DNA from: Verrucomicrobiota bacterium
GTDB taxonomy: Bacteria; Verrucomicrobiota; Verrucomicrobiia; Limisphaerales; Palsa-1400
DNA length: 31,528 bases
Assembly (NCBI GenBank): GCA_049510745.1
Contig: JBEKYR010000054.1
Location: forward strand, 1-31,528
Reading direction: 5' to 3'
Shown piece by piece: positions 260 through 29,133 of the stretch (its first letter is position 1; the number at the start of each line of letters is the position of its first letter). The notes beneath the pieces were generated by a model, which saw nothing but the letters and a program-made list of their open reading frames with translations, ran no database searches and had not been told where the DNA came from. The position numbers were made by a program, and so were the translations under genes.

Positions 260-1099
260 TCATGGCCCGGCCTCTTTGAGCAGCGCACCGAGCCGGCCGG
301 CCCACTGGGCGAGGTCAAAGTTCTGCGGGTCGTCGTGCGCGTCGGGAATGCCCGCGTCCACCGCCGCGTGATAGGCCGGAACCATCCATTGGCCGTGTTC
401 GACACTGGCCGTCAAGTAGAGCAACGCCAGCCGGTCCAGCATCGGCCCGGTGAACCCCGGCTCCGGCGCAATGACATCGTTGCCGGGCGCGCCCCGCGGA
501 TCGGAACGGCGCGGCATCGTGTTCTCGACGTGGACGAACAGGCCCCGGCTCTGCTCCCGCGAAATGGTTCTCGATTCAAACTTGGTCGCGCGCCACGGCT
601 CGGTGAATTCGTGCGTCGTGATCGATTCCCCGGTGCGGCTCACAAAAATATGCGCGACAGGCCGCTTCTTCCAGACTTCCAGGTCGTTCAGCCGCCAGCC
701 CGGCTCGTTGATGTCCGCCGGAAACGGCTTCTCCCCGTAATTCGGCGTGCTCGTGTCGTGGATGACAAAGTATTTCGCCCGCAGCACATTGGTGATCGGC
801 CCGCCCACGTCGGCCTCGGCGATGTGGTGCGACGCCAGATACCGGCGCAACGCGTCGCGGGTGATTCCGACGGGCCTGCCGATCAGATGCTCCAGCGGCT
901 CCGGCAGGACCGCCAGCGGTTCGCCGACGCCTCCGCCGCGCAGGGGCGGGCGCAGAAGGCATTTCGCCTGCTCCAGCGGCGTGCCCGCGAACTCCAGTTT
1001 GTTCGTGTCAAAGGGGCAGGCAGCTTCGCCGCCCCGGCAGGCCGCCGCCATCGGCAGCAGCGCCAGCGCAATCAAGCATATTTTCATCGCATTCATCAC
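260..1099 (-). CDS. Exported N-acetylmuramoyl-L-alanine amidase-like protein (Amidase_2/PGRP fold)
   Basis: Signal peptide with a weak lipobox (MAAAC). Motifs YFVIHDT, AHIFV, PWRA, HVEN, YH and HDDP occur in the order of the AmpD/AmiD zinc and catalytic motifs. The start may be ATG 1096 or 1087. Confidence 0.7.
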   Translation of the reverse strand: MMNAMKICLIALALLPMAAACRGGEAACPFDTNKLEFAGTPLEQAKCLLRPPLRGGGVGEPLAVLPEPLEHLIGRPVGITRDALRRYLASHHIAEADVGGPITNVLRAKYFVIHDTSTPNYGEKPFPADINEPGWRLNDLEVWKKRPVAHIFVSRTGESITTHEFTEPWRATKFESRTISREQSRGLFVHVENTMPRRSDPRGAPGNDVIAPEPGFTGPMLDRLALLYLTASVEHGQWMVPAYHAAVDAGIPDAHDDPQNFDLAQWAGRLGALLKEAGP

Positions 1100-1173
1100 T
1101 GTTCATCCAGCATCGCATCAACCCGCGCGAATTGACAGCCGCGATTCCGCAAACCAGGCCGCGCCAATCCGCT

Positions 1174-2523
1174 TTAGGGCCGGGCGGCGGCGCGCCGCAG
1201 CCAGAAATAAACCGGCAGGCCCAACGCGATCAGCCCCAGGCCGGCGGCGGATTCCACCGGGCTGGTGCGCAGCGTGTTGCACAGCAGCCAGACCGCCACC
1301 ACGACAAAGAGCAGCGGCACCAGCGGATAGCCCAGGGTTTTATAGGGACGCGGCGTGTCCGGCAATTTTTTCCGCAGAACGAAAACGGCCAGCGTGGTGG
1401 CGGCGTAAAAAATCATGCCGGCGAAAATCACGCAATCCGTCAGTTGATCGAAGGTGGCCGACAAGGCCAGAACGGCCGCCCAAATCCCTTGAAGGAGGAT
1501 CGACGCCACCGGCACCGCCGAGCGGTCGTTGAGCCGGGCGAAACGCGCGAAGAACAACCCGTCGCGCGCCATGGCGTACGGAATCCGCGCGGCGGTGAGG
1601 ATCGAGCCGTTCAGCACGCCGATGGTTGACAGCAATGCCGCCAGCGCCACCCATTGCGCGCCAAAGCGGGGCAGGAAAGTTTCGGCCGCTTTGGCCGCCA
1701 CGGGCAGGGCCGTCCCGTGCAGCGTCGAACTGGAGGAGGCGATGGCGTCCATCGGCAGCGCGTAACAGTAGGCCAGGTTCAACACGCCATAGACCAGCAG
1801 AACGATGGCCATGCCCAAAATCAGCGCGCGCGGTATATTGCGCCCCGGCTCCCGCACTTCGCCCGCCGCCATCGGCATGTTGTTCCACCCGTCGAAGGCC
1901 CACAGCGCCGACAACATCGCCGCGCCGAACGCGGGAAAACCGCACCACGCCGCCGCCCCGGCCGGCGCGCGCAAATGCTCCCACGTTGCCGAAGGGGCGA
2001 AGAAAAAGACGCCAACCGCGATGGAAGCGATGGCCAGCACTTTGGCCAGCGTCAACACCGCCTGCACCCGCCCCCCGATGGTGACGCGCAGACAATTGAT
2101 CGCCGTAAAAACCAGGATGACTCCGACTGCCACCAACCGTTGCGCCCAGGCCCAATTCAATGGCGCCAGCGCCGACAGAAAGGTCGCAAACGCCGCGCCG
2201 AAACTGGCGATGGACCCGGTCGAACCGACCGCCAGCCGCATCCAGCCAAAGAGGAAGGCCGGCAGGTCGCCGTAAGCGGCCCGCAGATAGACGTATTCGC
2301 CGCCCGCGTCCGGCAGCATCGCGCCCAACTCCGCGTAGCTCAACGCGCCGGCCAGCGAGAGCAGGCCCGCCGCCAACCATGCCAGCAACACTAGCGCCGG
2401 TGTGCCCACCGCCTGCGCCATCCGCGCCGTTTTCAGAAATACGCCCGTTCCAATAATCGTGCCCACGACCAGCGCGGTCGTCGCGCCCAAATCCAGCCCC
2501 CGAACCAGTTCGCGCTTGCTCAT
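1174..2523 (-). CDS. APC-superfamily amino acid permease (LAT/SteT-like)
   Basis: GTIIGTGVF, GALSYAELGAMLPDAGGEYVYL, AFDGW, ARIPYAMARDG and RPYK motifs; about 12 TM segments; 4-nt ATGA overlap with the upstream gene. Confidence 0.93.
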   Translation of the reverse strand: MSKRELVRGLDLGATTALVVGTIIGTGVFLKTARMAQAVGTPALVLLAWLAAGLLSLAGALSYAELGAMLPDAGGEYVYLRAAYGDLPAFLFGWMRLAVGSTGSIASFGAAFATFLSALAPLNWAWAQRLVAVGVILVFTAINCLRVTIGGRVQAVLTLAKVLAIASIAVGVFFFAPSATWEHLRAPAGAAAWCGFPAFGAAMLSALWAFDGWNNMPMAAGEVREPGRNIPRALILGMAIVLLVYGVLNLAYCYALPMDAIASSSSTLHGTALPVAAKAAETFLPRFGAQWVALAALLSTIGVLNGSILTAARIPYAMARDGLFFARFARLNDRSAVPVASILLQGIWAAVLALSATFDQLTDCVIFAGMIFYAATTLAVFVLRKKLPDTPRPYKTLGYPLVPLLFVVVAVWLLCNTLRTSPVESAAGLGLIALGLPVYFWLRRAAARP

Positions 2524-3839
2524 GGCCCGCGGAATACCATCCGGCAGATGATCACCGATGCGACGACCCCGGCAAAGTCCGCCAGCAGCCCCGCCGCCAC
2601 CGCGTGGCGCGTCCGACGGATGCCCACCGACCCGAAATAAACCGCAATGACGTAGAAAGTCGTTTCCGTGCTGCCGAGGATTGTTCCCGCCATCATGCTG
2701 TAAATGGAATTGGGGCCGTAGGTTTTGACCACGTCCGTCACCAGGGCGATGCTGCCGCTGCCGCTCAGCGGTCGCATCAGCGCCAGCGACAGGAGTTCGG
2801 GCGGGAATCGGAAAAAGTCCAGGGCGGGCTTGAGCGCCTTTGCCACCAAATCAATCCCATGCGCGCCCCGGAACATTCCGACCGCCGCCAGTATCGTCAC
2901 CAGGAATGGAATAATGCGGATGGCCACCCCAAATCCTTCCTTGGCCCCTTCCACAAATTCCTCATAGACCTTGATTCGCCGCAACGCCGCGTAAAGAGGA
3001 AAGAACGACAGAAAAAACGGGATGGCCAGCAGCGACACGGCCCTGACCGTGCGCGCGAAGGCTCCCATCGCGGGGCCGGCCGTGGCCGCGAAGGCCAGCC
3101 GGACGAACAGCCAGACAAAGAAGCCCGCGAATAAAATCAGCAGCACTTTTCCCCATTGGGTCAGTGGAGCCGCAGGGGCGCTTTCCGCCATCACCGCGTT
3201 GCCGCCAGCGGCGGGGACCGCCTTGGGCGCTTCTTCGCCGGCCGCCGGGTCGGCCCGGAAAATACGCAGCTTCTCGAAGGTCTTGACCGCCGTCAGGCCG
3301 ACGGTTTGTGAAACCACCGTCGCCATTAGCGCCGTGCCGACAATCGCCGTGGGATTGTTTCCGCCCGCCGCCGCCAGGATGGCTACCGCCGTCGTGGGGA
3401 TGAGCTGGACCGACGCGGTGTTGATGGTGAGAAAAGTACACATGGCGTTGGTGGCCGTGCCGGGATGGGGATTGAGCGTCTGCAATTCGGTCATCGCCCG
3501 CAGGCCCAGCGGCGTGGCGGCGTTGATCAGGCCCAGCATGTTGGCGGCGATGTTCATGACCATCGCTCCCATCGCCGGATGATCGGGCGGCACTTCCGGA
3601 AACAATCGCCGTAACACAGGCCGCAATCCCCGCGCCAGCAAAAGGATCAACCCGGACTTCTCCGCCAGGCGCATGACCCCCAGCCAAATGGTCATGATGG
3701 CCGACAACGGCAGCGCGATCTCCATCACGGCGGTTTTCGCCATGTCGAATGCCCCCTTGATCACGTCATCCAGGCAATTGTTCCATCCGCCGATGAGCAC
3801 CGCCGCGACGACCAGAACCAGCCAGATGTAATTGAGCAT
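2520..3839 (-). CDS. spmAB: Fused SpmA-SpmB (spore maturation protein / nucleoside-recognition Gate domain) membrane protein
   Basis: SpmA half: MLNYIW, RRLFPEVPPDHPA, NIAANMLGL.NAATPLGLRAM, INTASVQLIP. SpmB half: VYEEFVEGAKEG, LMRPLSGSGS, GSTETTFYVIAVYFGSVGIRRTRHA. Confidence 0.92.
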   Translation of the reverse strand: MLNYIWLVLVVAAVLIGGWNNCLDDVIKGAFDMAKTAVMEIALPLSAIMTIWLGVMRLAEKSGLILLLARGLRPVLRRLFPEVPPDHPAMGAMVMNIAANMLGLINAATPLGLRAMTELQTLNPHPGTATNAMCTFLTINTASVQLIPTTAVAILAAAGGNNPTAIVGTALMATVVSQTVGLTAVKTFEKLRIFRADPAAGEEAPKAVPAAGGNAVMAESAPAAPLTQWGKVLLILFAGFFVWLFVRLAFAATAGPAMGAFARTVRAVSLLAIPFFLSFFPLYAALRRIKVYEEFVEGAKEGFGVAIRIIPFLVTILAAVGMFRGAHGIDLVAKALKPALDFFRFPPELLSLALMRPLSGSGSIALVTDVVKTYGPNSIYSMMAGTILGSTETTFYVIAVYFGSVGIRRTRHAVAAGLLADFAGVVASVIICRMVFRGP

Positions 3840-3851
3840 GGGCGCGGGTGG

Positions 3852-4667
3852 TTAGGGGCTTTCTTTGCCGGAACCGGCGCCCTCCGGCGCGGACGGCGGC
3901 GGCAACCGCCACTCTTGCTGGAATCGCTCGTATTCCGGCAGCGGAAGTTGCACCAGGACGGGACTCGACCGCGGGTCCAGCCAGCCGACAAGACTTTCCA
4001 TCGCTCCGACGCTCATCGCGGTGCAACCGCTGGTGGGCACACCCGGCCCCTTCCAAATATGCAGAAAAATGCACGAGCCGCCGCCCGCCTCGGCCGGCCC
4101 GCTGTTGTGCTCGACAAACACCCCCAGGCGATACTCGTCATCGGCCAGCCGCATTTTTTCCGAGCTTTTCCAATCGACCTTCTCCACCGACCGCCGGTCC
4201 TTCACAATGTTGTAGTAGGCCGAATTCGTATCATCGACGCATTCCACCGAAGCCGTGCATTGGATGTAGGGCAATCGAATGGCGCGCACGGCCTCAGGCG
4301 GGGCGTAACCAAAACTATAAGGAAGCCGAAAAACCCCTGCGGGACTTCGTCCATCTCCCTCCCGTTTTTGCGGGCCGGACAGATGCGGCGGGTGCATTCC
4401 AATGCCCCAGCCCAGACCGTTTCTGCCCAGCACGACGGGCAGGCACGGCCCGACCGGATGCCAACGGAGCAGATCGAACTCAAACCGCTGCATCGACCCA
4501 TTCGTGGCGCTCCAATCCCCGGCCGTGACCACCACGATCTGGCGGGACTGCGCCAGCGCAGCCCAGACCGGCTCCGGCGATTGGGCGCGCAGCCATGCCG
4601 GCAGCAGACACAAAGCCATCAGCAGCCGCGCCCTGCACGATGGAAATATCTCAGGATTGGTTGACAA
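3852..4667 (-). CDS. Exported YkuD/L,D-transpeptidase-fold enzyme (COG3786-like)
   Basis: VVLGRNGLGWG, KREGDGRSPAGVF and catalytic His/Cys motif IFLHIW...PTSGCTAM; signal-peptide-like N-terminus; start uncertain. Confidence 0.85.
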   Translation of the reverse strand: MSTNPEIFPSCRARLLMALCLLPAWLRAQSPEPVWAALAQSRQIVVVTAGDWSATNGSMQRFEFDLLRWHPVGPCLPVVLGRNGLGWGIGMHPPHLSGPQKREGDGRSPAGVFRLPYSFGYAPPEAVRAIRLPYIQCTASVECVDDTNSAYYNIVKDRRSVEKVDWKSSEKMRLADDEYRLGVFVEHNSGPAEAGGGSCIFLHIWKGPGVPTSGCTAMSVGAMESLVGWLDPRSSPVLVQLPLPEYERFQQEWRLPPPSAPEGAGSGKESP

Positions 4668-4709
4668 TTTGACCGTTTTGTTACGAAATATCTTTTAACG
4701 ACTTCGCAA

Positions 4710-4862
4710 GTGCGCAAAAAGGAAAAAAGCCATTATTATTTGCTTCCGGGACAGGGACGGGGGGCGCGCAGGCGCTTTCTGCGCAACATGATTGTTGCCC
4801 TGATCGTCGGTTCCATCACCGCGGGTTTGCTCTTTTGGCTCTTCTACTCTCTTGAACAATAG
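4710..4862 (+). CDS. Small single-pass membrane protein (50 aa), below the ORF-track cutoff
   Basis: GTG 4710 to TAG 4862: MRKKEKSHYYLLPGQGRGARRRFLRNMIVALIVGSITAGLLFWLFYSLEQ; basic N-terminus then one hydrophobic helix. Confidence 0.6.
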   Translation: MRKKEKSHYYLLPGQGRGARRRFLRNMIVALIVGSITAGLLFWLFYSLEQ

Positions 4863-6513: not shown

Positions 6514-9500
6514 GTGAACTATACTGAAATCCTCAACGCCCTGCGCGAGTTCACTTCTCGCACACGAATTGAGTTTTTGCCGCCGGCCCCCGCGGCAGCG
6601 CCCCTTTCAGATTACGCCCCAATCCAAAAGTACGTCCTCGACCTCAAGAACGTCGTCAAACCCGAAACTGCCGCCGAAGACCTTTTCACCGCCCTCTGCA
6701 AAGACGTTCTGGGGTTTCAGCCCACCCGCCAGGTCGGCAGCCGCGAGGGATGGGTCGATTTCATGTTGCCCGAACCCAGGGGAGAACCTCTGCCCTTGGA
6801 ACTCAAGCCCCTCTTTCAACGCGACGGCCCCAATGCTCTTTGGCGGGCCGACGCCAACCCCCAGCAGCACGTCGCTCAGGTTAAAAAATATCTGCGCGAC
6901 CACGAATACCTCATTCTCACCGACCTTCGCACCGCCTGGTTTTTCAGCGCGCGCGATTTTTTCTTTGAACTCAAACCCTTTGCCGAGCTGCCCTTCGCCG
7001 ATTTCTTTGCCCGCTGCCGCGAAACCGGCAGCATCCTGGACACTCTGCGCCGCCTCGAGGACACGGCGGAAAAACCGGAACTGGAACAACAGTTTTTTGA
7101 AGACCTGAAAATCTGGTTCAACGAGTTCGACCGGGTCAAATGGACGCCGCCCGAACAAGCCGCCGAATCCATCATCCTCCTGATCAACAAGCTCATCTTC
7201 GCCCGCACGATCGAGGACTACGGCCTGGTGCAATACCGCTTCACGCAGGACGAATACACCCGCTTCACCAAGCTCTGGGAGCCAAAGGGCGCGCATCGCG
7301 TCGTGCCAAAGTTCCTCGATTTCTTCGAGGAGTTCTTTGACGAATACTACGACACCGAAATCTTTTCCCAGCGCATCTGGGCCCGCCTCGACAAAGACCC
7401 GGCCAATCTCCAGCGCTTTTGCAGCAAGCTCAACTTCGTTCTCGGCATCAATACTTGGGACCAGACTTTCAGCCGCGGCATCGTCCACTACAACTACCGC
7501 CGCATTGACGAGGACATTTTCGGCAAGAGTTACGAAATGTTTCTCGCCGCCAACCGCAAAGACGAGGGCATCTTCTACACCCCCGCCGCCATCACCCGCC
7601 CGATGGCCGATTCTTTGGTCAACTCCCTCGCCGGCAAACTCGTCGATGAAATCTGCCACGCCGTCTCCAGCCAGACATGCGATTTTGCCCGCGCCGATAA
7701 ACTCATGGCCCAACTCGCCGAAATCCGCGTCGCCGACACCGGCTGCGGCTCGGGCGGCTTCCTCATCAAAGTTCTCCGCGCTTTTTGGCAGCAGTACCAG
7801 CGCATCGATCAGGCCTCGGCTTGGGTGCAAAAAATCCTCAAGCCCGAAAACGGTGAAATGTATCTCGCCGAGATGCCGCCCAACGTCGAAGCCGCCATCG
7901 CCTTCCGCCGCCGCCAGAATCTTGACAACCGCCGCGTTCTCATCGCGCAGATTTTGCTCCGCCACATCTTCGGCGTGGACAAAGACCCGGGCGCGCTCGC
8001 GGTCGCCAAGACCAACATTTGGAAGGAAGCCGTCAAACTCTCGCCCGCCGACTACAACTATCGCCTGCTCAAAACCGATGTCGTTCGCATCCTGCCGAAC
8101 CTGGAATTGAATTTCCATTCCGCCGACTCGCTGGTGGACGTGGAACTGGGCAAACAGGCCGGCTGGCTGGCCGAATACCACCAGGCCGAGTTGAAAAAAC
8201 TCTCCGATCTCCGCGCCCGTTACATCGACGACCCAATGCGCCACGAGCCGCTGGAGGAGGCGCTCGCCTTGCGCAACAAAGTCCGCGCCAATTTGATCGA
8301 GCATTTCCAATCCGAAAATCTTCCATGCCCGCCGGGTTGTTTCGCCCTCCACTTCTGGCCCTGCTGGTTCACGCCCGACGGCAGGCAACGTGAAGTTTCG
8401 GGCTTCCACGGCATCATCGGCAACCCGCCGTGGGAAGGGTTCAAACCCATCCGCAAGGAATTCGCCGCCAATTTCTATCGCGGCAAACCGCAGTTCAGCA
8501 AAATGGGCATGGACGGCCCGGCGTTTGAGAAATGGTTTGAAGAAGAACTTAAAACGAACCAGGGATTTGCCGCCCGCTGGCGCGAACACGAGGCCTACTA
8601 CGAACGATACAAGGAATTCTTCGGCAAAACCTTTCAGCGGCAGGGCACAGGCGACTGGAATCTCTTCAAGCTTTTCATCGAGCGCGACCTCTCGCTCGTC
8701 CGGCAGGGCGGCCAATTCTCCCTGCTCGTGCCCAGTGGATTCCAGACCGACGAAGGCTGCGCCGATCTCCGCCGCTGGTTCATCACCGAACACCGATTGG
8801 ACGAACTGACCTCGTTTGAAAACCGCGGCTACACGGTCATCGAGAACGGCAGGGAAAAGACCAAGCACATTTTCCCGGACGTGGACAGCCGCTTCAAATT
8901 CGGCTTCTTCAAAGTCGTCAAAGGCGCGCCCACCTCGAAAGACCACGCCTTCGACGCGAGGTTTTATCTTCATGATCCGAAGGACGCCTTTGCAACGCCG
9001 ATTCGTTACAACCTTGAAATGGTTTCGGCCTTCTCACCCGATAATCTTGCGTTCATGGAATTTCGTACCCCTACAGATTACGAACTTGGAAAGAAGATTC
9101 GCGGTAATCACGCTTTGCTTGGAAGCCTGGGTTATCAGTTCCGTCGCGAGCTTCACCTGACCGGCGATGCAAGATTCCTGCACAAGTTGGGAAGCAAGAA
9201 ACTGGATTCTCACGAAATGCCGTTGTTAGAGGGGAAGTCAATCTTCCAATATGACGCGAAGTTCTCGCCGCCGTCTTGGTGTGTGGAGGAGTCGGAAGTT
9301 CGCGTTGAACTTTTGCGCAAAGAGGTCTTCCGAATCGCCGATTTCATCCGCGACAACGCGACGAAGGTCTTTGAAGGGAAACCTCTGCCGCAGACGCGAG
9401 ACGCAGTGGAGAAAGCAATTCAAGCTGTATTTGAGGACCGAAAGTTCAAGCTCCACTACGAGTTTGAAAGACTGGCCTATCGCGAGGTTGGAAGCTCGAC

Positions 9501-9975
9501 AAACGAGCGGACTCTCATTGCATCCATTCTTCCGGCTCGCGCGTGCTTTAGTCACAAGTTGATGTATTTGACGCCGTGCCGCTACAGTCTTGGAGCGACA
9601 GGAAAGTTGAAACAAGAAGAAGTCCCCCTTCAAGACGGGCAGGCGCTGCTTACCCTGATGAATTCGCTCACGTTGAACTTCTACGTTCGCAGCAAGGTTT
9701 CCACCGGCGTCAGCGTGCATCATCTGTACGAACTCCCCATTCCCAACTTGGATCCCCCCGCCCGCAAGCAGCTCGCAGGTACGGCGGACAAGCTTTTAAA
9801 AAACCCGCGCGACGTGAAAGAACGCGCCGCGCTGGAAGTCTTCATCGCCCGCGAACTTTACGGCCTGTCGCTGGACGACTGGAAACATCTCACCGCCACC
9901 TTCACCTTCGGCAGCGGCCCAACCAAAGACGAGCTGGACGAAATCATCCGCCTCTCCCTCAACCTTTGGGTCTAA
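6514..9975 (+). CDS. Type IIG/IIL single-chain restriction-modification enzyme (endonuclease + N6-adenine methyltransferase + target recognition domain)
   Basis: N-terminal PD-(D/E)xK nuclease (VDFML...LELK...QVKKY...ILTD), GIFYTP, motif I DTGCGSGGFL, IFGVD, motif IV IIGNPPW, and a C-terminal TRD-like region (LAYREVGSSTNERTLIA). Confidence 0.88.
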   Translation: MNYTEILNALREFTSRTRIEFLPPAPAAAPLSDYAPIQKYVLDLKNVVKPETAAEDLFTALCKDVLGFQPTRQVGSREGWVDFMLPEPRGEPLPLELKPLFQRDGPNALWRADANPQQHVAQVKKYLRDHEYLILTDLRTAWFFSARDFFFELKPFAELPFADFFARCRETGSILDTLRRLEDTAEKPELEQQFFEDLKIWFNEFDRVKWTPPEQAAESIILLINKLIFARTIEDYGLVQYRFTQDEYTRFTKLWEPKGAHRVVPKFLDFFEEFFDEYYDTEIFSQRIWARLDKDPANLQRFCSKLNFVLGINTWDQTFSRGIVHYNYRRIDEDIFGKSYEMFLAANRKDEGIFYTPAAITRPMADSLVNSLAGKLVDEICHAVSSQTCDFARADKLMAQLAEIRVADTGCGSGGFLIKVLRAFWQQYQRIDQASAWVQKILKPENGEMYLAEMPPNVEAAIAFRRRQNLDNRRVLIAQILLRHIFGVDKDPGALAVAKTNIWKEAVKLSPADYNYRLLKTDVVRILPNLELNFHSADSLVDVELGKQAGWLAEYHQAELKKLSDLRARYIDDPMRHEPLEEALALRNKVRANLIEHFQSENLPCPPGCFALHFWPCWFTPDGRQREVSGFHGIIGNPPWEGFKPIRKEFAANFYRGKPQFSKMGMDGPAFEKWFEEELKTNQGFAARWREHEAYYERYKEFFGKTFQRQGTGDWNLFKLFIERDLSLVRQGGQFSLLVPSGFQTDEGCADLRRWFITEHRLDELTSFENRGYTVIENGREKTKHIFPDVDSRFKFGFFKVVKGAPTSKDHAFDARFYLHDPKDAFATPIRYNLEMVSAFSPDNLAFMEFRTPTDYELGKKIRGNHALLGSLGYQFRRELHLTGDARFLHKLGSKKLDSHEMPLLEGKSIFQYDAKFSPPSWCVEESEVRVELLRKEVFRIADFIRDNATKVFEGKPLPQTRDAVEKAIQAVFEDRKFKLHYEFERLAYREVGSSTNERTLIASILPARACFSHKLMYLTPCRYSLGATGKLKQEEVPLQDGQALLTLMNSLTLNFYVRSKVSTGVSVHHLYELPIPNLDPPARKQLAGTADKLLKNPRDVKERAALEVFIARELYGLSLDDWKHLTATFTFGSGPTKDELDEIIRLSLNLWV

Positions 9976-22663: not shown

Positions 22664-24529
22664 ATGTCGAGGAAGACGATTCAACCCGCTTTCCATCCCC
22701 CGGCAGCGGGCGCTTCAGCCTCCGGGGACCTGGCCCAGGCATGGTGGCAGCAAGGCTGGTTCTTTTTTCTCCTCCTGTCGGTGGCGGCCTTTCTGGCTTA
22801 TCAACCGGTCTGGCATGGGGGTTTTTTGTGGGACGATTCCGTCTTGCTGACCAATAATCCGCTGGTCAAACAAGCCGACGGCTGGTGGCGGATTTGGTGC
22901 GAAAGCGTGACCGATTATGTGCCGGCGACCCTGACGACGTTCTGGCTGGAATGGCGTTTGTGGGGGGGCAATCCTTTGGGTTACCACCTGGGCAACATCC
23001 TCCTGCATGCCCTGGCCGCGTTCCTGGCGTGGAAAGTTTTGCGGGCGCTTAAAATTCCAGGCGCCCGCCTGGCGGCGGCGATTTTTGCGCTGCATCCGGT
23101 GGCGGTGGAATCGGTCGCCTGGATTGCGGAGCGAAAGAACACGCTGGCGATGGTGTTTTATCTTTGCGCGCTGCTCTGGTTTCTGCGCTTCGAGGATTCC
23201 GGCGACCGGCGCTGGTATTGGACTTCGGCGCTGGCGTTTGTTCTGGCGCTCTTCAGCAAGACAGCCGTTGTGCCGCTGCCGGTGGTGCTCCTGGGCATGG
23301 CTTGGTGGCGGCGGGGGCGAATCGACCGCCGGGACCTCCTCCGCAGCCTGTTGTTTTTTGTGTTGGCGGCGGCCGGGGTTTTGCTGGCGCTGTGGATTCA
23401 GCGGGGGGCCACGGGCGCCAGTTTTCAGACCGTCAGTTTTTGGGGGCGTCTGGCGCAAGCCGGCTGGGTTGTTTGGTTCTATCTTGGCAAAGCGGTTGTT
23501 CCTCTGAACCTCGTTCCGGTTTATCCGCTCTGGCATATCAACGCGGCCAGGATGGTTTCTTACTTGCCCACCCTGGCGGTGGCCGCGGTCCTGGCCGCCA
23601 GTTGGCTCTGCCGAAAGCAAGGAGGAAGGGTGGTGCTGGCGGCGTTTGGTTATTTTCTGGCGCTGCTTCTCCCGGTCATGGGATTTGCCAATATTTCCCT
23701 GATGCGTTGCACGTTGGTGGCGGATCAGTGGCAGTATTTCGCCCTCATTGGCCCCGTCGCCCTGCTGGCCGCCGGCGCGACCGTTGCCGTGAGATTCCTG
23801 GGTCCAGGCAAGGTATTCCTGGCGCCCGCGGGTGTCGTGGTGTTGCTCCTGGCGCTGGGCGTTTTGACGTGGAGGCAGAGCCGGCTCTACACCAGTCCCA
23901 CCACACTTTGGCAGGCCACGCTGGCGGCGGATCCGCGTTCTTTCCTGGCCCAAAGTTCCCTCGGCAGCATCCTCTTCAAGAGCGGCAAGACAGCGGAGGC
24001 GATCGCTCATTACGAGGCCGCGCTGGCCATCGACCCCAAATTCTTCGACGCGCACTACGATCTGGCCAACATCTTTCTCCAGACCGGCCACCCGTCCGAT
24101 GCCGTGGCCCATTACGAAAAAGTGCTGCAAATCCAGCCGGACTTCCCCCAGGCAGTCAATAATCTGGCTTGGGTCCTGGCGACGTGTCCTCTGCCCTCTC
24201 TCCGCAACGGCGCCCGCGCGGTGGAACTGGCCGGCCGCGCCGTGAACCTTTCGGGGGGCAAGGACCCTTCCCCTGTCGGCACGCTGGCGGCTGCTTACGC
24301 CGAGGCCGGCCGATTTGATGACGCGATCACCGCCGCCCGCGTGGCCCTGAAATTGGCCGGCGCCCGGAATGATGCGGCGCAGGTCAAGGACCTGAACCAA
24401 CAACTCGCCTGCTACCAGCGGGGCGCTCCCTACCGTGATCCGCTCCCAGCCGGGGCCAGTGCCAACCCCCGGTCCCCGCCGCCTATTGCGGCACCTGCAA
24501 AACGCGGTAGAAGCGCTGAGCGTCAGTGA
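22664..24529 (+). CDS. TMTC-like GT-C membrane glycosyltransferase with C-terminal TPR repeats
   Basis: GGFLWDD, GYHLGNILLH, FALHPVAVESVAWIAERKN, ADQWQY; about 11 TM segments followed by TPRs (AIAHYEAALAIDP, AVAHYEKVLQIQP). Confidence 0.82.
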   Translation: MSRKTIQPAFHPPAAGASASGDLAQAWWQQGWFFFLLLSVAAFLAYQPVWHGGFLWDDSVLLTNNPLVKQADGWWRIWCESVTDYVPATLTTFWLEWRLWGGNPLGYHLGNILLHALAAFLAWKVLRALKIPGARLAAAIFALHPVAVESVAWIAERKNTLAMVFYLCALLWFLRFEDSGDRRWYWTSALAFVLALFSKTAVVPLPVVLLGMAWWRRGRIDRRDLLRSLLFFVLAAAGVLLALWIQRGATGASFQTVSFWGRLAQAGWVVWFYLGKAVVPLNLVPVYPLWHINAARMVSYLPTLAVAAVLAASWLCRKQGGRVVLAAFGYFLALLLPVMGFANISLMRCTLVADQWQYFALIGPVALLAAGATVAVRFLGPGKVFLAPAGVVVLLLALGVLTWRQSRLYTSPTTLWQATLAADPRSFLAQSSLGSILFKSGKTAEAIAHYEAALAIDPKFFDAHYDLANIFLQTGHPSDAVAHYEKVLQIQPDFPQAVNNLAWVLATCPLPSLRNGARAVELAGRAVNLSGGKDPSPVGTLAAAYAEAGRFDDAITAARVALKLAGARNDAAQVKDLNQQLACYQRGAPYRDPLPAGASANPRSPPPIAAPAKRGRSAERQ

Positions 24530-27500
24530 CCGGGTCGGTGACCGTGACGGTCGCGTTGGTGGCGGTAATGGGGCCGCCCAAATCAGCCCAATTGGTGGCT
24601 GTCAAACACGAGTTGTATTGCACCTGGTAATTCGCTCCTGCCGTGGCCGCCCAACTGAACGCGATCCTGTTGCCGGATTGGAAGGCCGCTTGGAACACCG
24701 GAAGAACCGGCGCCAGGATCGTCAACGTTCCATCGACAATGGTAACCTGGTAATCCGGCAGCCGGCCGCCGGGGTCCGCCAGGTTCGGTATAATCGGATA
24801 CGTCCCCGCCGGGCTGACCGAGGTGGCGCCGCAACCGTAGCTGGCAGTGATATTGTCCCCGTTCCGCAAGCCGGCAATGACGCCCGTGAACACCGGGTTG
24901 GTGATGCCGTACGAGCGCGTGGCATTGCTGGCCGTCACGCTCAACGGCGCCGGCGACACCACCAGACTGACAAAGTCGGTCACGCTGTAATAGTCCGTCG
25001 AGTCGTTGGGCGTGAAGGCCGCCGACAACAGGTTGCTGCCCGCATTCAGAACTGTTCCGGCGGGCGGAACATAGGAGAAAGCACCCGGGACATTCGCGGA
25101 CGCGTTTAACTGGGCGGCGCCCAGAGCGCCGCCGTAAGTGAGAGCCGGCGGATTCGTCCAAGTGATGACGGGTGTGCCGACGAACACGAACCCGTTGGTC
25201 AACACCGCGCTTTGGCCGTCCGCGTTGGTGAGCGCAACGTTCACCGCGCCGACGGTGGAAGAGGCGGGCGTCACCACAGTAAGATTGGTGGCGCTGTTGA
25301 AGGTCACCGCGGCTGCCGCGACGGAGCCGAAGGCCACCGCGGCATGGCCTTGGAATCCAGAGCCAGTAATCGTCAGGGTTGTGCCGCCGGCAACCGGCCC
25401 GGCGGAAGGCGTGATGCCACCGAGGGTGGGAGGAGCCGCTGTCACACTAATGTCGTCCAACCCGAAGAAACTGGCCGCATTCGCAAAGCCGATTTGGAGG
25501 ACGCTGTACGGATTGGTGGCGGCAAGAGTAAATTGAAGGTTTGTCCAGCCGATGCCCGGAAGATTTGTCTCGTTATAGACCACGTTTCCCTCCCAGGAAA
25601 CCTGGAACCCATTGGGGGTGGCGCCGTCCGAACTATCCAGCCACAATGAAACCGAATACATCTGCCCGGGGATCGTGGGTATCGTCTGCGACAGATAGCC
25701 CAAAGCTCCGTTATTGACGAGGAACGCGCCGTAGGCCCCGGAGTGGATGGCGCCGTCATAGGTGCTGGCCGAAACATAGGCGGTGTCCCCGTTCAAAGTC
25801 CATCCTGTCAAATCGCCGGTTTCAAACCCGCCGTTCTGAACCAACTGGCCGATCATAAAAAGCAGCGGCAGGCTTTCCCCGGCGGCGAACGTGTTGTTGC
25901 TGAATAAGACGCCCGCGGACCAGGCTCCCGCCGGCAGGTTGGTGGCGGCGACATTGAGGCTGCAATTGACAACAGCCGCGCCAAAAGGCCCCAAAACGCC
26001 GTTGGTGGGTGAAACATCGAGCCAGGGCGGATTGGTCACTACGTTCCAGTTGACTGCAACCTGGCTGGCGTTGGTTAACCGGCAGAGGATCGCCGCGGCA
26101 TTGAACGGGCCGCTCGGCGGACCGTCAAACTCGTAGCCGGCCGCGGGGGAAAGCGTCAGCGGGTCCGAGATTTGCAACGTGAACGACCGGTGGTGCAGCA
26201 GGCCGTTGCCCAGATTGGTCAACGTCAGGTGGGCGGTGTAGCTTCCCACAAGAAGATTCGACGCCGCATTCAAGTTGACCAGCACACTGGCCGTCGCGCC
26301 GGGGCTGAGACTCCCATTGGTCGGCCAGGCGGAAAGCCACGGCGCGTCACTCTGCAAACACCAGCTCAGCGACGCGGTCCCTTCGTTTGTCAATAAAAAA
26401 TTCTCCGCCGTCACATTGAAGGGGCCTCCGCCGGGGCCGCTGGAAATGAAGCCCGCCACGGGCAGCATCACCAGCGTGTCCGGCGGGGCGAGGGTGTTGA
26501 TCAAATTGCTGCCGTTGGGCGTCCCCCACCCGGTGCAAAGATCATAGCCGCGCGCGGCGAAATAGGCGTTGGGGCTGTTGGCGTTGGTGTTGTTGCCAAT
26601 GGTAATATCGTGAAAGTTCGTCGCATAACCGGCGCCCGCGCCAATGGCGTAAAGAGCGGGGTTCAGGAAGCCGACAGGCCCATTACCGTACTTGGCCGCC
26701 TGCTGGTTGACCAGCGCCGTAAATCCCGCCCATAACGGCGCGGCGGCGCTGGTGCCGTAGAAAGACTCGGAGGTGTTATCATCAGCAATCAAGAAGACGT
26801 TGAATGCGCACATGGCAACATCGGGCAGATTCCGGTATGCGGTGGACCCTTGGTTGGTCGCCATGCTGATCCCGGCTTGCCAGGAGGGAATCGCGTAATT
26901 GGTCGTGAACCCGCCGCTGCTGCCGCTCCAGACGGTTTCAGATTGCCACGGCCCGTTGGTGCCGGTTGTTGACAATACCGTGCCGCCCACCACGGTGATA
27001 TACGGGTCGCCCGTCGGGGCGCTGACCTGGCCCGGCGGATCGGCGCCGAAATCAGCGGAAGCGCAAAAAAACGACTGCCCTTGCGCGGCAAACTGTTGGA
27101 ATATCTGGTCGGTGACGGCGTCCACCGAAATAAATATCCACGAGCAGCTAATTTGAGCGGCCAGATTGTCGGTCGCGATCCGGTTCAAGAGATCGTCCAC
27201 CGGCGAAAAGACGCTCTCTTCATAAACGAGGATTTTGGAAAGTCCCGGCGCCATGGAAACCAGCAAATCAATGTCCGCCGCCACCTCCGAGTTCTGAAAA
27301 CTCGGCGCGCCGCCAAAACCATCGACCAGGACGTTGGACAGCGTGACGCTGGAAAGTCCGGCCTTGGACTCGTAGGCGGCAATATCGCTTGGGTAATAGC
27401 CGTCAAACTCGACCAGTGCCGCGGTTTGCCCCCTGCCGGTCAAGGTGACGCCCGGCGCGTAGGCCGCCCTGAAATCCTTGCCGATGTACCCGCCGCCCGG

Positions 27501-28151
27501 CCCGGAGCCACCCGAAGGTTCAGCGCCCCCCTCCGGCGCAATCGGCGCCTTCTTAAAATTGGCGTGCGGCGCGCTGAAGTTGTCCAGACCCTCGATCGCC
27601 AGGACCGGAATGCCCGCGTCGATGGATGGAGCCGCATCCGGGCAATAAAAGGCGCGGGGTTCCGTCGGATGTTGATAAACGCGGATGTTCACGCGGAGAA
27701 CCCGGCGAATATCCGCCACCGAGGCGCTCACCTCCAGCAGCGTCCGATTCGGGTGCAGGCCCGTGACTTGGAAATGATTGGCGCGGGCGAAATCAATGAG
27801 AGCCTGGTAATCCTGCTTTGTGGGACCAAATTGATCCGCGAATTCCGCCGGACTCAAATACCGGTGAAATTTCGGGCTGGCCGGATCGTAAATCTGTTGA
27901 ACCAGGCTGGCCAGAGCTTCCCTATGGCGCAACGGCAGGCCGACGGTCAGGTTCAGACGTGCGGCATCCGGCAGAGAACCAATCGGTTGCATATGAGCCG
28001 CCGCAGCCGGCACGCCCCCTGGCAATGACTGCCTTTCGGCTGTTTGACCCGCCATGCCGAAGCAAAGCGATAAGAGCAACTGAGCGCTGACGAACTTCCG
28101 GCCAACCCAGTACTCCCTGTTGACGGCTTGCGGATACACGGGTTTCCTCAT
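24483..28151 (-). CDS. Secreted sedolisin/kumamolisin (peptidase S53) multidomain protein: prodomain, catalytic domain, BACON-like repeats, CBM-like, IPT/TIG, MBG-like and C-terminal ...FYRV domain
   Basis: Prodomain (YDPASPKFHRYLSPAEFADQFGP); catalytic EVAAD, SADFG, GTSAAAPLWAG; Ca-site GYDLCTGWGTP; IPT start PTLGGITPSAGPVAGGT. ATG 28151 chosen as the start. Confidence 0.88.
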   Translation of the reverse strand: MRKPVYPQAVNREYWVGRKFVSAQLLLSLCFGMAGQTAERQSLPGGVPAAAAHMQPIGSLPDAARLNLTVGLPLRHREALASLVQQIYDPASPKFHRYLSPAEFADQFGPTKQDYQALIDFARANHFQVTGLHPNRTLLEVSASVADIRRVLRVNIRVYQHPTEPRAFYCPDAAPSIDAGIPVLAIEGLDNFSAPHANFKKAPIAPEGGAEPSGGSGPGGGYIGKDFRAAYAPGVTLTGRGQTAALVEFDGYYPSDIAAYESKAGLSSVTLSNVLVDGFGGAPSFQNSEVAADIDLLVSMAPGLSKILVYEESVFSPVDDLLNRIATDNLAAQISCSWIFISVDAVTDQIFQQFAAQGQSFFCASADFGADPPGQVSAPTGDPYITVVGGTVLSTTGTNGPWQSETVWSGSSGGFTTNYAIPSWQAGISMATNQGSTAYRNLPDVAMCAFNVFLIADDNTSESFYGTSAAAPLWAGFTALVNQQAAKYGNGPVGFLNPALYAIGAGAGYATNFHDITIGNNTNANSPNAYFAARGYDLCTGWGTPNGSNLINTLAPPDTLVMLPVAGFISSGPGGGPFNVTAENFLLTNEGTASLSWCLQSDAPWLSAWPTNGSLSPGATASVLVNLNAASNLLVGSYTAHLTLTNLGNGLLHHRSFTLQISDPLTLSPAAGYEFDGPPSGPFNAAAILCRLTNASQVAVNWNVVTNPPWLDVSPTNGVLGPFGAAVVNCSLNVAATNLPAGAWSAGVLFSNNTFAAGESLPLLFMIGQLVQNGGFETGDLTGWTLNGDTAYVSASTYDGAIHSGAYGAFLVNNGALGYLSQTIPTIPGQMYSVSLWLDSSDGATPNGFQVSWEGNVVYNETNLPGIGWTNLQFTLAATNPYSVLQIGFANAASFFGLDDISVTAAPPTLGGITPSAGPVAGGTTLTITGSGFQGHAAVAFGSVAAAAVTFNSATNLTVVTPASSTVGAVNVALTNADGQSAVLTNGFVFVGTPVITWTNPPALTYGGALGAAQLNASANVPGAFSYVPPAGTVLNAGSNLLSAAFTPNDSTDYYSVTDFVSLVVSPAPLSVTASNATRSYGITNPVFTGVIAGLRNGDNITASYGCGATSVSPAGTYPIIPNLADPGGRLPDYQVTIVDGTLTILAPVLPVFQAAFQSGNRIAFSWAATAGANYQVQYNSCLTATNWADLGGPITATNATVTVTDPVTDAQRFYRVLQVPQ

Positions 28152-28168
28152 CAATCGGTTCCAGGGTG

Positions 28169-28205
28169 AAAAAAAGAGAGGCAGAACAACTTGTTCCGCC
28201 TCTCT
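28169..28205 (-). terminator. Rho-independent terminator after the VPDSG-CTERM gene
   Basis: Minus strand AGAGAGGCGGAACAA-G-TTGTTCTGCCTCTCT followed by a T-run. Confidence 0.85.
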
Positions 28206-28233
28206 GTCAATGTGAAACTTGATGAGCGTGCGC

Positions 28234-28917
28234 TTAGCCGCGCTTGGCGCCAAACTTCGAGCGGAGTCCGGCCAGGCCCAGCAGCACGGAACCAACCATG
28301 CTCAGCGTCATTCCGCCGTCAGGCGTAGTCACCCTGAAGGTGGCATCCAGATTAGCAAATTCGTTGTGCCCCGGATGAATCGAGTTCTGCGAAGGATCGC
28401 CAACAATCAGAACTTCGTTCAGGTAATACGAACCGCTGATCGTTCCCGAATCCTGTTTGGCCGTGGGCGCCATGGCCAGAGCCAAGGTTGATCCCAACTG
28501 CGTCCCAAGCGACCCGCCTGCGATGTAAAGTGTCGGACTCTCCCAGGCTTGGGCTTGAGCGGTCAAAGACTCGCCGCCCGGATCACTCGCTCCAAAGGTC
28601 CACTTGCCATCTTGGCCGTACTGTCCGCTGCTGTAGATGACTTCCAATCCGGCAGTTTGCAGTCCGGCATTCTGAGAGAGGTCGTTCAAACCAACAACCA
28701 GCGATCCAGAAGATGTTCCTGTGGCGATATCCAAGTCCCAAGAGCCAACAGTTCCAGCCCAGGTGATACCATTCGGTCCAAGGTTTGCGGCCGGGATGAT
28801 CACCGAGCTAGTGCCGGAAATCAGTTCCATGTAGGCATTGGCCTTCGCCACTGAAGCACTCGCCAAGAGAGCTCCCGTCAGCGCCACCGTCGTTATTAAG
28901 GTTTTTGTTTTCATCAT
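28234..28917 (-). CDS. Exported VPDSG-CTERM (PEP-CTERM-like, exosortase target) protein
   Basis: AAGGA SD and ATG 28917; signal peptide MMKTKTLITTVALTGALLASASVAKA; Ser/Thr/Gly-rich body; C-terminal TPDGGMTLSMVGSVLLGLAGLRSKFGAKRG. Confidence 0.85.
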   Translation of the reverse strand: MMKTKTLITTVALTGALLASASVAKANAYMELISGTSSVIIPAANLGPNGITWAGTVGSWDLDIATGTSSGSLVVGLNDLSQNAGLQTAGLEVIYSSGQYGQDGKWTFGASDPGGESLTAQAQAWESPTLYIAGGSLGTQLGSTLALAMAPTAKQDSGTISGSYYLNEVLIVGDPSQNSIHPGHNEFANLDATFRVTTPDGGMTLSMVGSVLLGLAGLRSKFGAKRG

Positions 28918-29007
28918 TTTATCCTTTTCTTTCTTTAGTTTCACATTGTTCTGCGTTACTTGTCTCACCTTCTGTGCTGTTACGCACATTTGTCTGCAAG
29001 GTTCATA

Positions 29008-29024
29008 TGCAAGCCGCGTGCCAA
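29008..29024 (-). promoter_or_regulatory. Sigma54 (RpoN) -24/-12 promoter
   Basis: Minus strand TTGGCACG-CGGC-TTGCA matches the TGGCACG-N4-TTGC(A/T) consensus. Confidence 0.88.
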
Positions 29025-29133
29025 CATCCAAACCTTTGTTCAAGCACCCTTGAATAATGACATAACATACTTATATTCAACCGCTTATCAAATCAACCTT
29101 TTTCCCGTTCCTACCTCCACTCACAGGCCAATC

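Follow-up and report, generated by a model that had tools for sequence, protein, structure and literature searches.

A four-gene run of YkuD, SpmAB, APC permease and putative AmpD-fold amidase genes in a Verrucomicrobiota genome: a possible wall-salvage locus

Organization of the four-gene run

A contig of 31,528 nucleotides (C54, JBEKYR010000054.1; hereafter the window) from a genome of the Limisphaerales (GCA_049510745.1, labelled G000, 94% complete) carries a run of four co-directional genes that encode a YkuD-domain enzyme, a fusion of SpmA and SpmB (SpmAB), an APC permease and a candidate amidase of the AmpD fold. The run was compared within a family of 31 genomes, G000 included, and with YkuD and spmAB loci of other phyla. 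The host is taken to be non-sporulating from its taxonomic position in the Limisphaerales of the Verrucomicrobiota, to which the names of close homologues also point. The genes of the run and its borders are as follows (aa, amino acids; ORF, open reading frame):

3852-4667, reverse strand: YkuD-domain gene, 271 aa, TTG start; possible later start at an ATG, residue 17
2520-3839, reverse strand: SpmA-SpmB fusion gene (spmAB), 439 aa
1174-2523, reverse strand: APC permease gene, 449 aa
260-1099, reverse strand: AmpD-fold amidase candidate gene, 279 aa, GTG start; ATG at 1096
4668-4709: AT-rich intergenic stretch from the YkuD gene to the divergent 50-aa ORF, likely a promoter region
4710-4862, forward strand: unannotated ORF of 50 aa, divergent from the four-gene run, whose product has a basic N-terminus and a single hydrophobic segment
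3-254: end of nadA, convergent, bordering the amidase-candidate side of the run

The YkuD gene and spmAB are separated by 12 base pairs (bp; 3840-3851), spmAB and the permease gene share an ATGA overlap (2520-2523) and the permease gene is followed by 74 bp (1100-1173) before the amidase candidate, in exact agreement with the layout given in an earlier annotation made from the nucleotides alone (the sequence-only reading). The spacing is tight and co-directional, and the run is a putative operon. No terminator-like sites were found in the intergenic gaps (five sites versus 6.8 expected, all within ORFs), and a consensus scan for promoters and terminators was at chance level, with no site within 4668-4709. 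The divergent 50-aa ORF occupies the same position in 16 of 25 family loci and its GTG start is conserved.

Pfam agrees with three of the gene identities proposed by the sequence-only reading. The 3852-4667 product matches YkuD (PF03734, 28.7 bits against a cut-off of 23.4) and scored 0.96 against the YkuD clusters of the Atlas, whose record begins at residue 17. SpmAB, encoded by a single-copy gene in G000, matches Gate (PF07670, 63.5 bits) in two stretches that correspond to the SpmA and SpmB halves, an identity with which the JGI names of its close homologues agree. The 1174-2523 product matches AA_permease_2 (PF13520, 222.7 bits against a cut-off of 27) and is nearest to models of the LAT/FrlA type, with all 21 NCBIfam matches (LAT, FrlA, BcaP and others) under their cut-offs (TIGR00911, 243 bits against 701.8).

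Distribution and gene order within the family

Of the 31 family genomes, 17 contain the YkuD type (with strong scores), 15 the APC orthologue, 12 SpmAB and five the amidase family; all five are SpmAB-positive (hypergeometric 0.005, the genomes being kin and not independent). The order YkuD>SpmAB>APC is present in four genomes, including both that carry all four genes, and YkuD>SpmAB without APC in one, with one more broken by a contig end. A further genome contains SpmAB>APC>amidase, and in another SpmAB>APC is broken by a contig end. In seven genomes the YkuD gene is directly followed by the APC gene without spmAB, and in four spmAB has none of the three other genes as partner. In this family the YkuD gene is thus most often partnered by the APC permease, and the description of the run as one built around SpmAB gives way to a commoner YkuD-APC pair. 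In the YkuD tree of the family, genes linked to spmAB occur on both main branches and are mixed with the APC-only ones, a pattern that suggests an ancestral three-gene run from which spmAB would have been lost repeatedly.

Variants of the run include an inserted polysaccharide deacetylase gene in G002, an insertion seen in two genomes of the family. In G007, an unlinked spmAB is followed by Amidase_2 and S66 genes and a convergent epimerase-like gene.

Two putative exported wall enzymes

Within an alignment of 62 YkuD homologues, His203 is kept in 60 and Cys215 in 53. The remaining nine have Gly or Ser in place of Cys and may form a subgroup that is inactive or of the serine type. For 120 homologues of each of the two enzymes, N-termini were scored with a simple hydropathy rule (not SignalP), 16 of each being dropped where the anchor pattern was absent, and a signal-like hydrophobic N-terminus was found in 97 of 104 YkuD homologues. 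Export, as the sequence-only reading had it, is therefore supported for this enzyme, which also keeps its catalytic residues. Searches of PDB sequences with the protein and with the family profile gave nothing significant, and Pfam detected no peptidoglycan-binding domain. Sequence features make the protein a probable exported hydrolase of the L,D-carboxypeptidase type, and we liken it to Csd6 and Pgp2, which we take to be YkuD-domain L,D-carboxypeptidases. A YkuD domain with its catalytic Cys (here with the His), the lack of a wall-binding domain and a recycling context are shared with ElsL of Acinetobacter, which is described as a cytoplasmic protein of 105-200 aa without a signal peptide and with orthologues in Verrucomicrobia (PMC8649774). 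The window protein differs from that class in its length of about 255-271 aa and its signal-like N-terminus.

The 260-1099 product has no Pfam or NCBIfam match (none to PF01510 at E 0.01) and PDB sequence searches gave nothing significant; its 2295 homologues were found among 6779 candidates. Its AF2 model (predicted local distance difference test, pLDDT, 92) has AmpD as its best Foldseek match (E 6.3e-5), and in VIA it aligned with AmpD/AmpDh2 at Z 10.7 over about 138 residues (root-mean-square deviation, rmsd, 3.2-3.3), with all VIA rows listed being AmpD, PGRP or lysozyme-type amidases. The Amidase_2-like identity given by the sequence-only reading is therefore recovered by structure, without a Pfam match. 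H114, E192, H244, D256 and D257 are invariant in a 105-sequence alignment, and presumably include the His-His-Asp zinc ligands and the catalytic Glu, roles that we assign from the motif order of AmpD. A near-invariant Cys28/Cys47 pair is located in the N-terminal region. A signal-like N-terminus was scored in 95 of 104 homologues, in agreement with the earlier claim of an exported enzyme; a lipobox pattern was found in only two homologues. The AmpD/T7-lysozyme fold, the ligand residues and the His-Glu-His-Asp order are shared with the Amidase_2 enzymes AmpD, AmiD and AmpDh2, whereas the profile PF01510 gives no match and the structural match does not extend to the residues before about 87. On its predicted model, the protein is a candidate exported AmpD-fold zinc amidase outside the PF01510 profile and apparently no lipoprotein.

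Predicted fold and relatives of SpmAB

The AF2 model of SpmAB (pLDDT 91.4; predicted template modelling score 0.89) was matched by VIA to the nucleoside transporter CNTnw (5l24; Z 13.9, rmsd 4.7, 282 aligned residues), bovine CNT3 (13.2), ArsB (12.1), YdaH (11.0) and TRAP (10.6), with the caveat that a Z near 13 can be common among helical proteins. All 13 rows with a Z of at least 8 are carriers of the CNT and ion-transporter (IT) folds and the first unrelated row has a Z of 6.4. Foldseek gave weak matches to VcINDY and YdaH (E 1.4e-3). By the fold of its model SpmAB is a predicted CNT/IT-type elevator carrier, and the transporter-like character proposed by the sequence-only reading finds its counterpart in a whole-length structural match to CNT and ion-transporter (DASS, AbgT, ArsB, TRAP) elevator carriers. 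The identity to these carriers is 8-16% and the Foldseek E only 1e-3, and their substrates are not transferable to SpmAB.

SpmAB shares 42-45% identity with the spmA+spmB products of Bacillus and Brevibacillus over about 80% of the protein (44.9% identity and 81% covered for Brevibacillus dacB-spmA-spmB), and has two Gate repeats as do SpmA/SpmB of Bacillus subtilis. One report describes the dacB-spmA-spmB operon and its role in spore dehydration (PMC8745062). Of two others, one states that SpmA/SpmB are conserved in nearly all spore formers with their biochemical mechanism unknown (10.1101/2022.02.25.481979), and the other also notes their conservation in spore formers and describes them as biochemically uncharacterised (PMC3533761). 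A D-alanine (D-Ala)-releasing peptidase gene lies directly upstream of spmA in Brevibacillus, as does the YkuD gene in the window. The window differs in that the gene is a single fusion in a non-Firmicute host, the upstream peptidase has a YkuD domain and is not a penicillin-binding protein, and the APC permease and amidase candidate follow downstream. No title or abstract opening in the literature searched assigns SpmAB a substrate, supplements and most subscription journals being outside its scope, and a Shewanella transposon insertion near a Gate gene is not attributable to that gene (10.1101/2024.05.20.594893). A scan of 32 long SpmAB homologues found Kelch in two, LTD in one and M15 in one, the others having Gate only or no match. 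The SpmB-M15 fusion (P0382) is possibly a frameshift artefact. SpmAB is fused behind Kelch repeats in P0268 and P0280.

The YkuD family in other phyla

The YkuD family was found in eight other Pseudomonadota genomes (of 250) and, in the Acidobacteriota, 10 loci were compared from 10 of 11 genomes. S58, DAACS and RpiR/MurR proteins are read here in their usual roles. Two of the eight Pseudomonadota loci have the order NlpC-SH3>epimerase>RpiR>YkuD>DAACS (DAACS/SDF), one has RpiR>YkuD>APC, one has YkuD beside epimerase/NlpC and before S13, one has M15>YkuD>MIP, one has a convergent SLT gene nearby and two are in unrelated context; overall, NlpC/P60-SH3 and dipeptide epimerase genes flank YkuD in three of eight. 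In the Acidobacteriota, an M15-YkuD fusion is part of alr>M15-YkuD>lysA-like>Amidase_2 runs at two of 10 loci, a YkuD-S58 peptidase fusion is present at one, and YkuD overlaps a gene of the beta-lactamase family at one (the rest are unrelated or poorly called). The fusions, M15-YkuD and YkuD-S58, lie at L496:3307-4725, L497:3941-5362 and L495:3958-5736. The JGI annotation often labels the family "D-alanyl-D-alanine dipeptidase", a name that the fusions may explain.

YkfC (NlpC/P60-SH3) and the YkfB epimerase are assigned to stem-peptide salvage in one report (PMC4600125). Clusters of the ykfABCD type contain members of the YkuD family and some spmAB genes (L436, L438, L439, L080, L018, L348), in line with the earlier placement of the YkuD enzyme in a wall-recycling setting. 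The window differs from these clusters in that YkfB, YkfC and S66 are absent and APC and SpmAB take the place of the ABC or oligopeptide permease.

The order YkuD>spmAB is also found in Azonexus, in Zoogloea and at one metagenome locus, and by eye no signal peptide is seen in the spmAB-adjacent YkuD proteins of Azonexus and Zoogloea. Together with one Acidobacteriota row, the three YkuD proteins form the sister group of the family clade (96/88, midpoint root), while the SpmAB proteins of these loci group within rows of the Bacteroidota type. A single clade with the family SpmAB was rejected by an approximately unbiased (AU) test (p 0.0014; 31 of 50 rows, the group being named after the tree was seen). 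Since the YkuD proteins are close and the SpmAB proteins do not form one clade, the simplest reading of these trees would be that the YkuD family was paired twice, separately, with unrelated spmAB copies. The YkuD family is a better guide to function than the spmAB neighbourhoods.

Neighbourhoods of spmAB outside the family

Of 400 further Verrucomicrobiota genomes, 18 carry a SpmAB homologue (one of them weak), as do 60 of the 121 Bacteroidota and 57 of the 251 Pseudomonadota genomes that were sampled. The neighbour survey also included 80 named-genome and 80 metagenome loci (the best 80 of at least about 600 matches each) and excluded sporulating Bacillota. Adjacent genes were clustered and then scanned, with E-value limits that varied from 1e-5 to 1e-9, neighbour clusters that are not fully independent and a list of wall-enzyme families that was fixed after the first survey data. 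Gene calling missed or truncated genes at some loci (mostly low-GC; L265, L492); after genes were called again at 50 low-GC loci, 38 altered neighbours were scanned, and 26 of 101 second-rank neighbours were scanned in a fresh sample.

In the first survey, wall enzymes made up 12 of 221 adjacent clusters (YkuD, NlpC/P60, S66, Amidase_3, M14 twice, S13, Amidase_2, MurQ, racemase, Hydrolase_2 and peptidoglycan-binding) and five of 191 at second rank. A blind sample of 116 loci gave five of 124 adjacent clusters (Amidase_3, AmiA-like, M14 twice and a transpeptidase-domain protein, two of the five being loose fits to the list) and an off-list epimerase with DUF1611. The distal control contained one wall cluster in 150 (drawn from 396), or three in 150 when off-list M23 and epimerase are counted, resulting in Fisher p values of 0.011 for the first survey, 0.069 for the blind sample and 0.097 for the pooled samples against the lenient control. 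The expectation that peptidoglycan enzymes gather around spmAB therefore held in part: several wall enzymes are adjacent to it, and the enrichment is modest and falls short in the blind sample.

Other neighbours of spmAB include NlpC and S66 (Tissierella), M20 with MurQ, M20 with Amidase_2, Amidase_3, a Glu racemase-like protein and DacB, the last in an annotated Brevibacillus record with the order dacB-spmA-spmB. In Legionella adelaidensis, spmA-spmB lies between an amidase-like gene and an M23 gene, both on the opposite strand. Recurrent neighbour families of 183, 449 and 340 aa have no Pfam match and are apparently clade-specific. At loci of the Ignavibacteria type (L082, L083, L340-L347 and others), spmAB is followed by D-2-hydroxyacid dehydrogenase and alanine dehydrogenase genes, often with Amidase_3 upstream, a neighbourhood that fits either alanine or a hydroxy acid as substrate. 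At L354, L358, L359, L363 and others, spmA-spmB is followed by genes for a 450-aa outer-membrane-like protein, proline dehydrogenase and an OPT oligopeptide transporter.

Other recycling genes of the host

G000 contains Mpl, AnmK and MurQ over their cut-offs, one Amidase_2, and a NagZ-like gene (194.7 bits) directly upstream of an AmpG-like MFS gene (158 bits against 350), both under cut-off. The NagZ-like and AmpG-like pair, the latter unusually long (566 aa), is located on contig C11 (L272:4359-7915), and MurQ, behind an N-acetylglucosamine-kinase-like domain in a 604-aa protein, on contig C76 (L275:770-2584, reverse strand). S66, M15 and SBP_bac_5 were not found in the 94% complete genome. 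SBP_bac_5 is present in 29 of 30 relatives and accompanies SpmAB in 10 of 12 family genomes; just two genomes of the family lack an Opp-type protein, and each of these carries SpmAB. Mpl is present in 27 of the 31 genomes regardless of SpmAB. Neither mutual exclusion of SpmAB and Opp nor a dependence of SpmAB on Mpl was seen among the 31 genomes.

Given the NagZ/AmpG-like pair, AnmK, MurQ and Mpl, the host probably has the canonical AmpG-NagZ-AnmK-MurQ-Mpl route, working beside the YkuD-APC unit. The sequence-only reading had proposed a recycling route independent of AmpG and Opp, which is unsupported in view of these genes and of the Opp-type proteins in most SpmAB-positive genomes.

A putative salvage unit and its alternatives

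We propose that the locus is a unit for periplasmic trimming and salvage of stem peptides in which SpmAB is an optional carrier, an explanation whose chances as a whole are close to even. The exported YkuD enzyme would hydrolyse the bond between meso-diaminopimelate and D-Ala, freeing D-Ala or D-Ala-D-Ala from wall peptides, and the AmpD-fold enzyme, where present, may cut stem peptides off N-acetylmuramic acid, as its fold and residues suggest. From gene order, the APC permease would be the core importer of the freed amino acid, and a role of the YkuD-APC pair in the salvage of wall amino acids is likely. SpmAB, predicted from its model to be an elevator-type carrier and presumably ion-coupled, could be a second, optional importer of D-Ala or of a small D-Ala-containing fragment. 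This is the weakest step, and that SpmAB carries any wall-derived solute is a tentative claim, somewhat more doubtful than the explanation as a whole. The unit would work beside the canonical route and not replace it.

D-Ala or D-Ala-D-Ala is the first guess for SpmAB because the slot behind YkuD otherwise holds amino-acid carriers and because YkuD and spmAB repeatedly have D-Ala enzymes (DacB, M15, Alr, S58) near them. The coexistence of APC and SpmAB in four genomes suggests that the two differ in substrate or affinity, which would leave room for a short peptide as the substrate of SpmAB. Overall, the gene contexts suggest that D-Ala or small pieces of stem peptides are salvaged, and not muropeptides; the muropeptide substrate assigned earlier to SpmAB is disfavoured by the modest wall-enzyme enrichment and by the slot behind YkuD, which speaks for a small fragment or a free amino acid.

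Several observations weigh against this explanation. All four genes occur together in only two of the 31 family genomes (G000 and G002), and the catalytic Cys is replaced by Gly or Ser in nine of 62 YkuD homologues. None of the eight other YkuD-positive Pseudomonadota genomes is SpmAB-positive, on which count a general YkuD-SpmAB co-occurrence was rejected, and 10 YkuD loci from other Verrucomicrobiota families (46 genomes) have no adjacent wall enzyme or co-directional transporter. At 292 non-family spmAB loci, the YkuD type of the window was found three times, the APC type once (on the opposite strand) and the amidase type not at all. Wall enzymes are modestly enriched beside spmAB (about 4-5% versus 1-2% at distal positions) and most neighbours are housekeeping genes; four of six annotated records (Bacteroides, Prevotella, Parabacteroides, Monoglobus) have no adjacent wall hydrolase. 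The locus is regarded as a lineage-restricted wall-salvage run, partly supported, with YkuD and APC as its core and SpmAB as an optional carrier.

SpmAB might instead be a general carrier of small solutes or cations (nucleoside, carboxylate or inorganic ion) without a wall substrate, placed in the YkuD-APC operon by gene-order drift and often lost. About 95% of the genes adjacent to spmAB are unrelated to the wall, the recurrent ones including the two dehydrogenases of the Ignavibacteria; the closest folds move nucleosides, arsenite, dicarboxylates and folate precursors, and YkuD>APC persists without spmAB in seven genomes. Drift accounts poorly for two separate pairings of spmAB with the same YkuD family, for the SpmB-M15 fusion and dacB-spmA-spmB, and for the several distinct wall-peptide enzymes that adjoin spmAB in unrelated phyla, and we consider this alternative rather unlikely. 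The version of the sequence-only reading, in which SpmAB imports the tri- or tetrapeptide freed by the amidase (or a muropeptide) and feeds cytoplasmic Mpl independently of AmpG and Opp, is improbable. The slot behind YkuD otherwise holds amino-acid carriers, nagZ lies beside an ampG-like gene in G000, Opp-type proteins accompany SpmAB in 10 of 12 genomes and Mpl is distributed irrespective of SpmAB. In favour of peptide import are the Mpl match over cut-off in a genome with no SBP_bac_5, S66 or M15 match, the SpmAB-positive state of both genomes without an Opp-type protein and of all five with the amidase, and the YkuD proteins of Azonexus and Zoogloea, which, with no signal peptide by eye, would need the peptide to be imported first.

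A true L,D-transpeptidase activity of the YkuD enzyme, for cross-linking or exchange of the terminal D-amino acid, with both carriers serving wall editing instead of salvage by moving D-amino acids into or out of the periplasm, is very improbable. The His/Cys dyad and the export signal are those of L,D-transpeptidases and no solved structure matched the family profile; the fusions and neighbours of the family are hydrolases and catabolic enzymes (M15, S58, NlpC/P60, epimerase, Alr, LysA-like) and the protein has no peptidoglycan-binding domain.

With salvage as the preferred reading, the locus offers a short list of substrates for SpmAB, D-Ala first, two families of exported wall enzymes with no structurally solved member, and a natural control in the relatives that have the YkuD-APC unit without spmAB. 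A wider reading, speculative and on balance unlikely, is that SpmAB is an unrecognised, widespread class of D-Ala (or D-Ala-D-Ala) importers with a CNT-like elevator fold. SpmAB would then have been recruited repeatedly behind D-Ala-releasing peptidases (DacB, the YkuD family, M15 fusions), and APC and DAACS carriers could take its place or be replaced by it. During cortex synthesis in spore formers, SpmAB would remove the D-Ala that DacB releases, and this removal would set cortex cross-linking and core dehydration. On this wider reading the window would also establish two new families, one of exported L,D-carboxypeptidases and one of AmpD-fold amidases. If SpmAB carries nothing derived from the wall, the locus would be an ordinary lineage-specific salvage operon.

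Other features of the window

Beyond the four-gene run, the window encodes a 1153-aa methyltransferase of the restriction-modification type with Eco57I/N6_Mtase matches (6514-9975, forward strand) and a 1270-aa protein with pro-kumamolisin, BACON, CBM, TIG and MBG domains (24483-29043, reverse strand), which is adjoined by a protein with a weak VPDSG-CTERM match.

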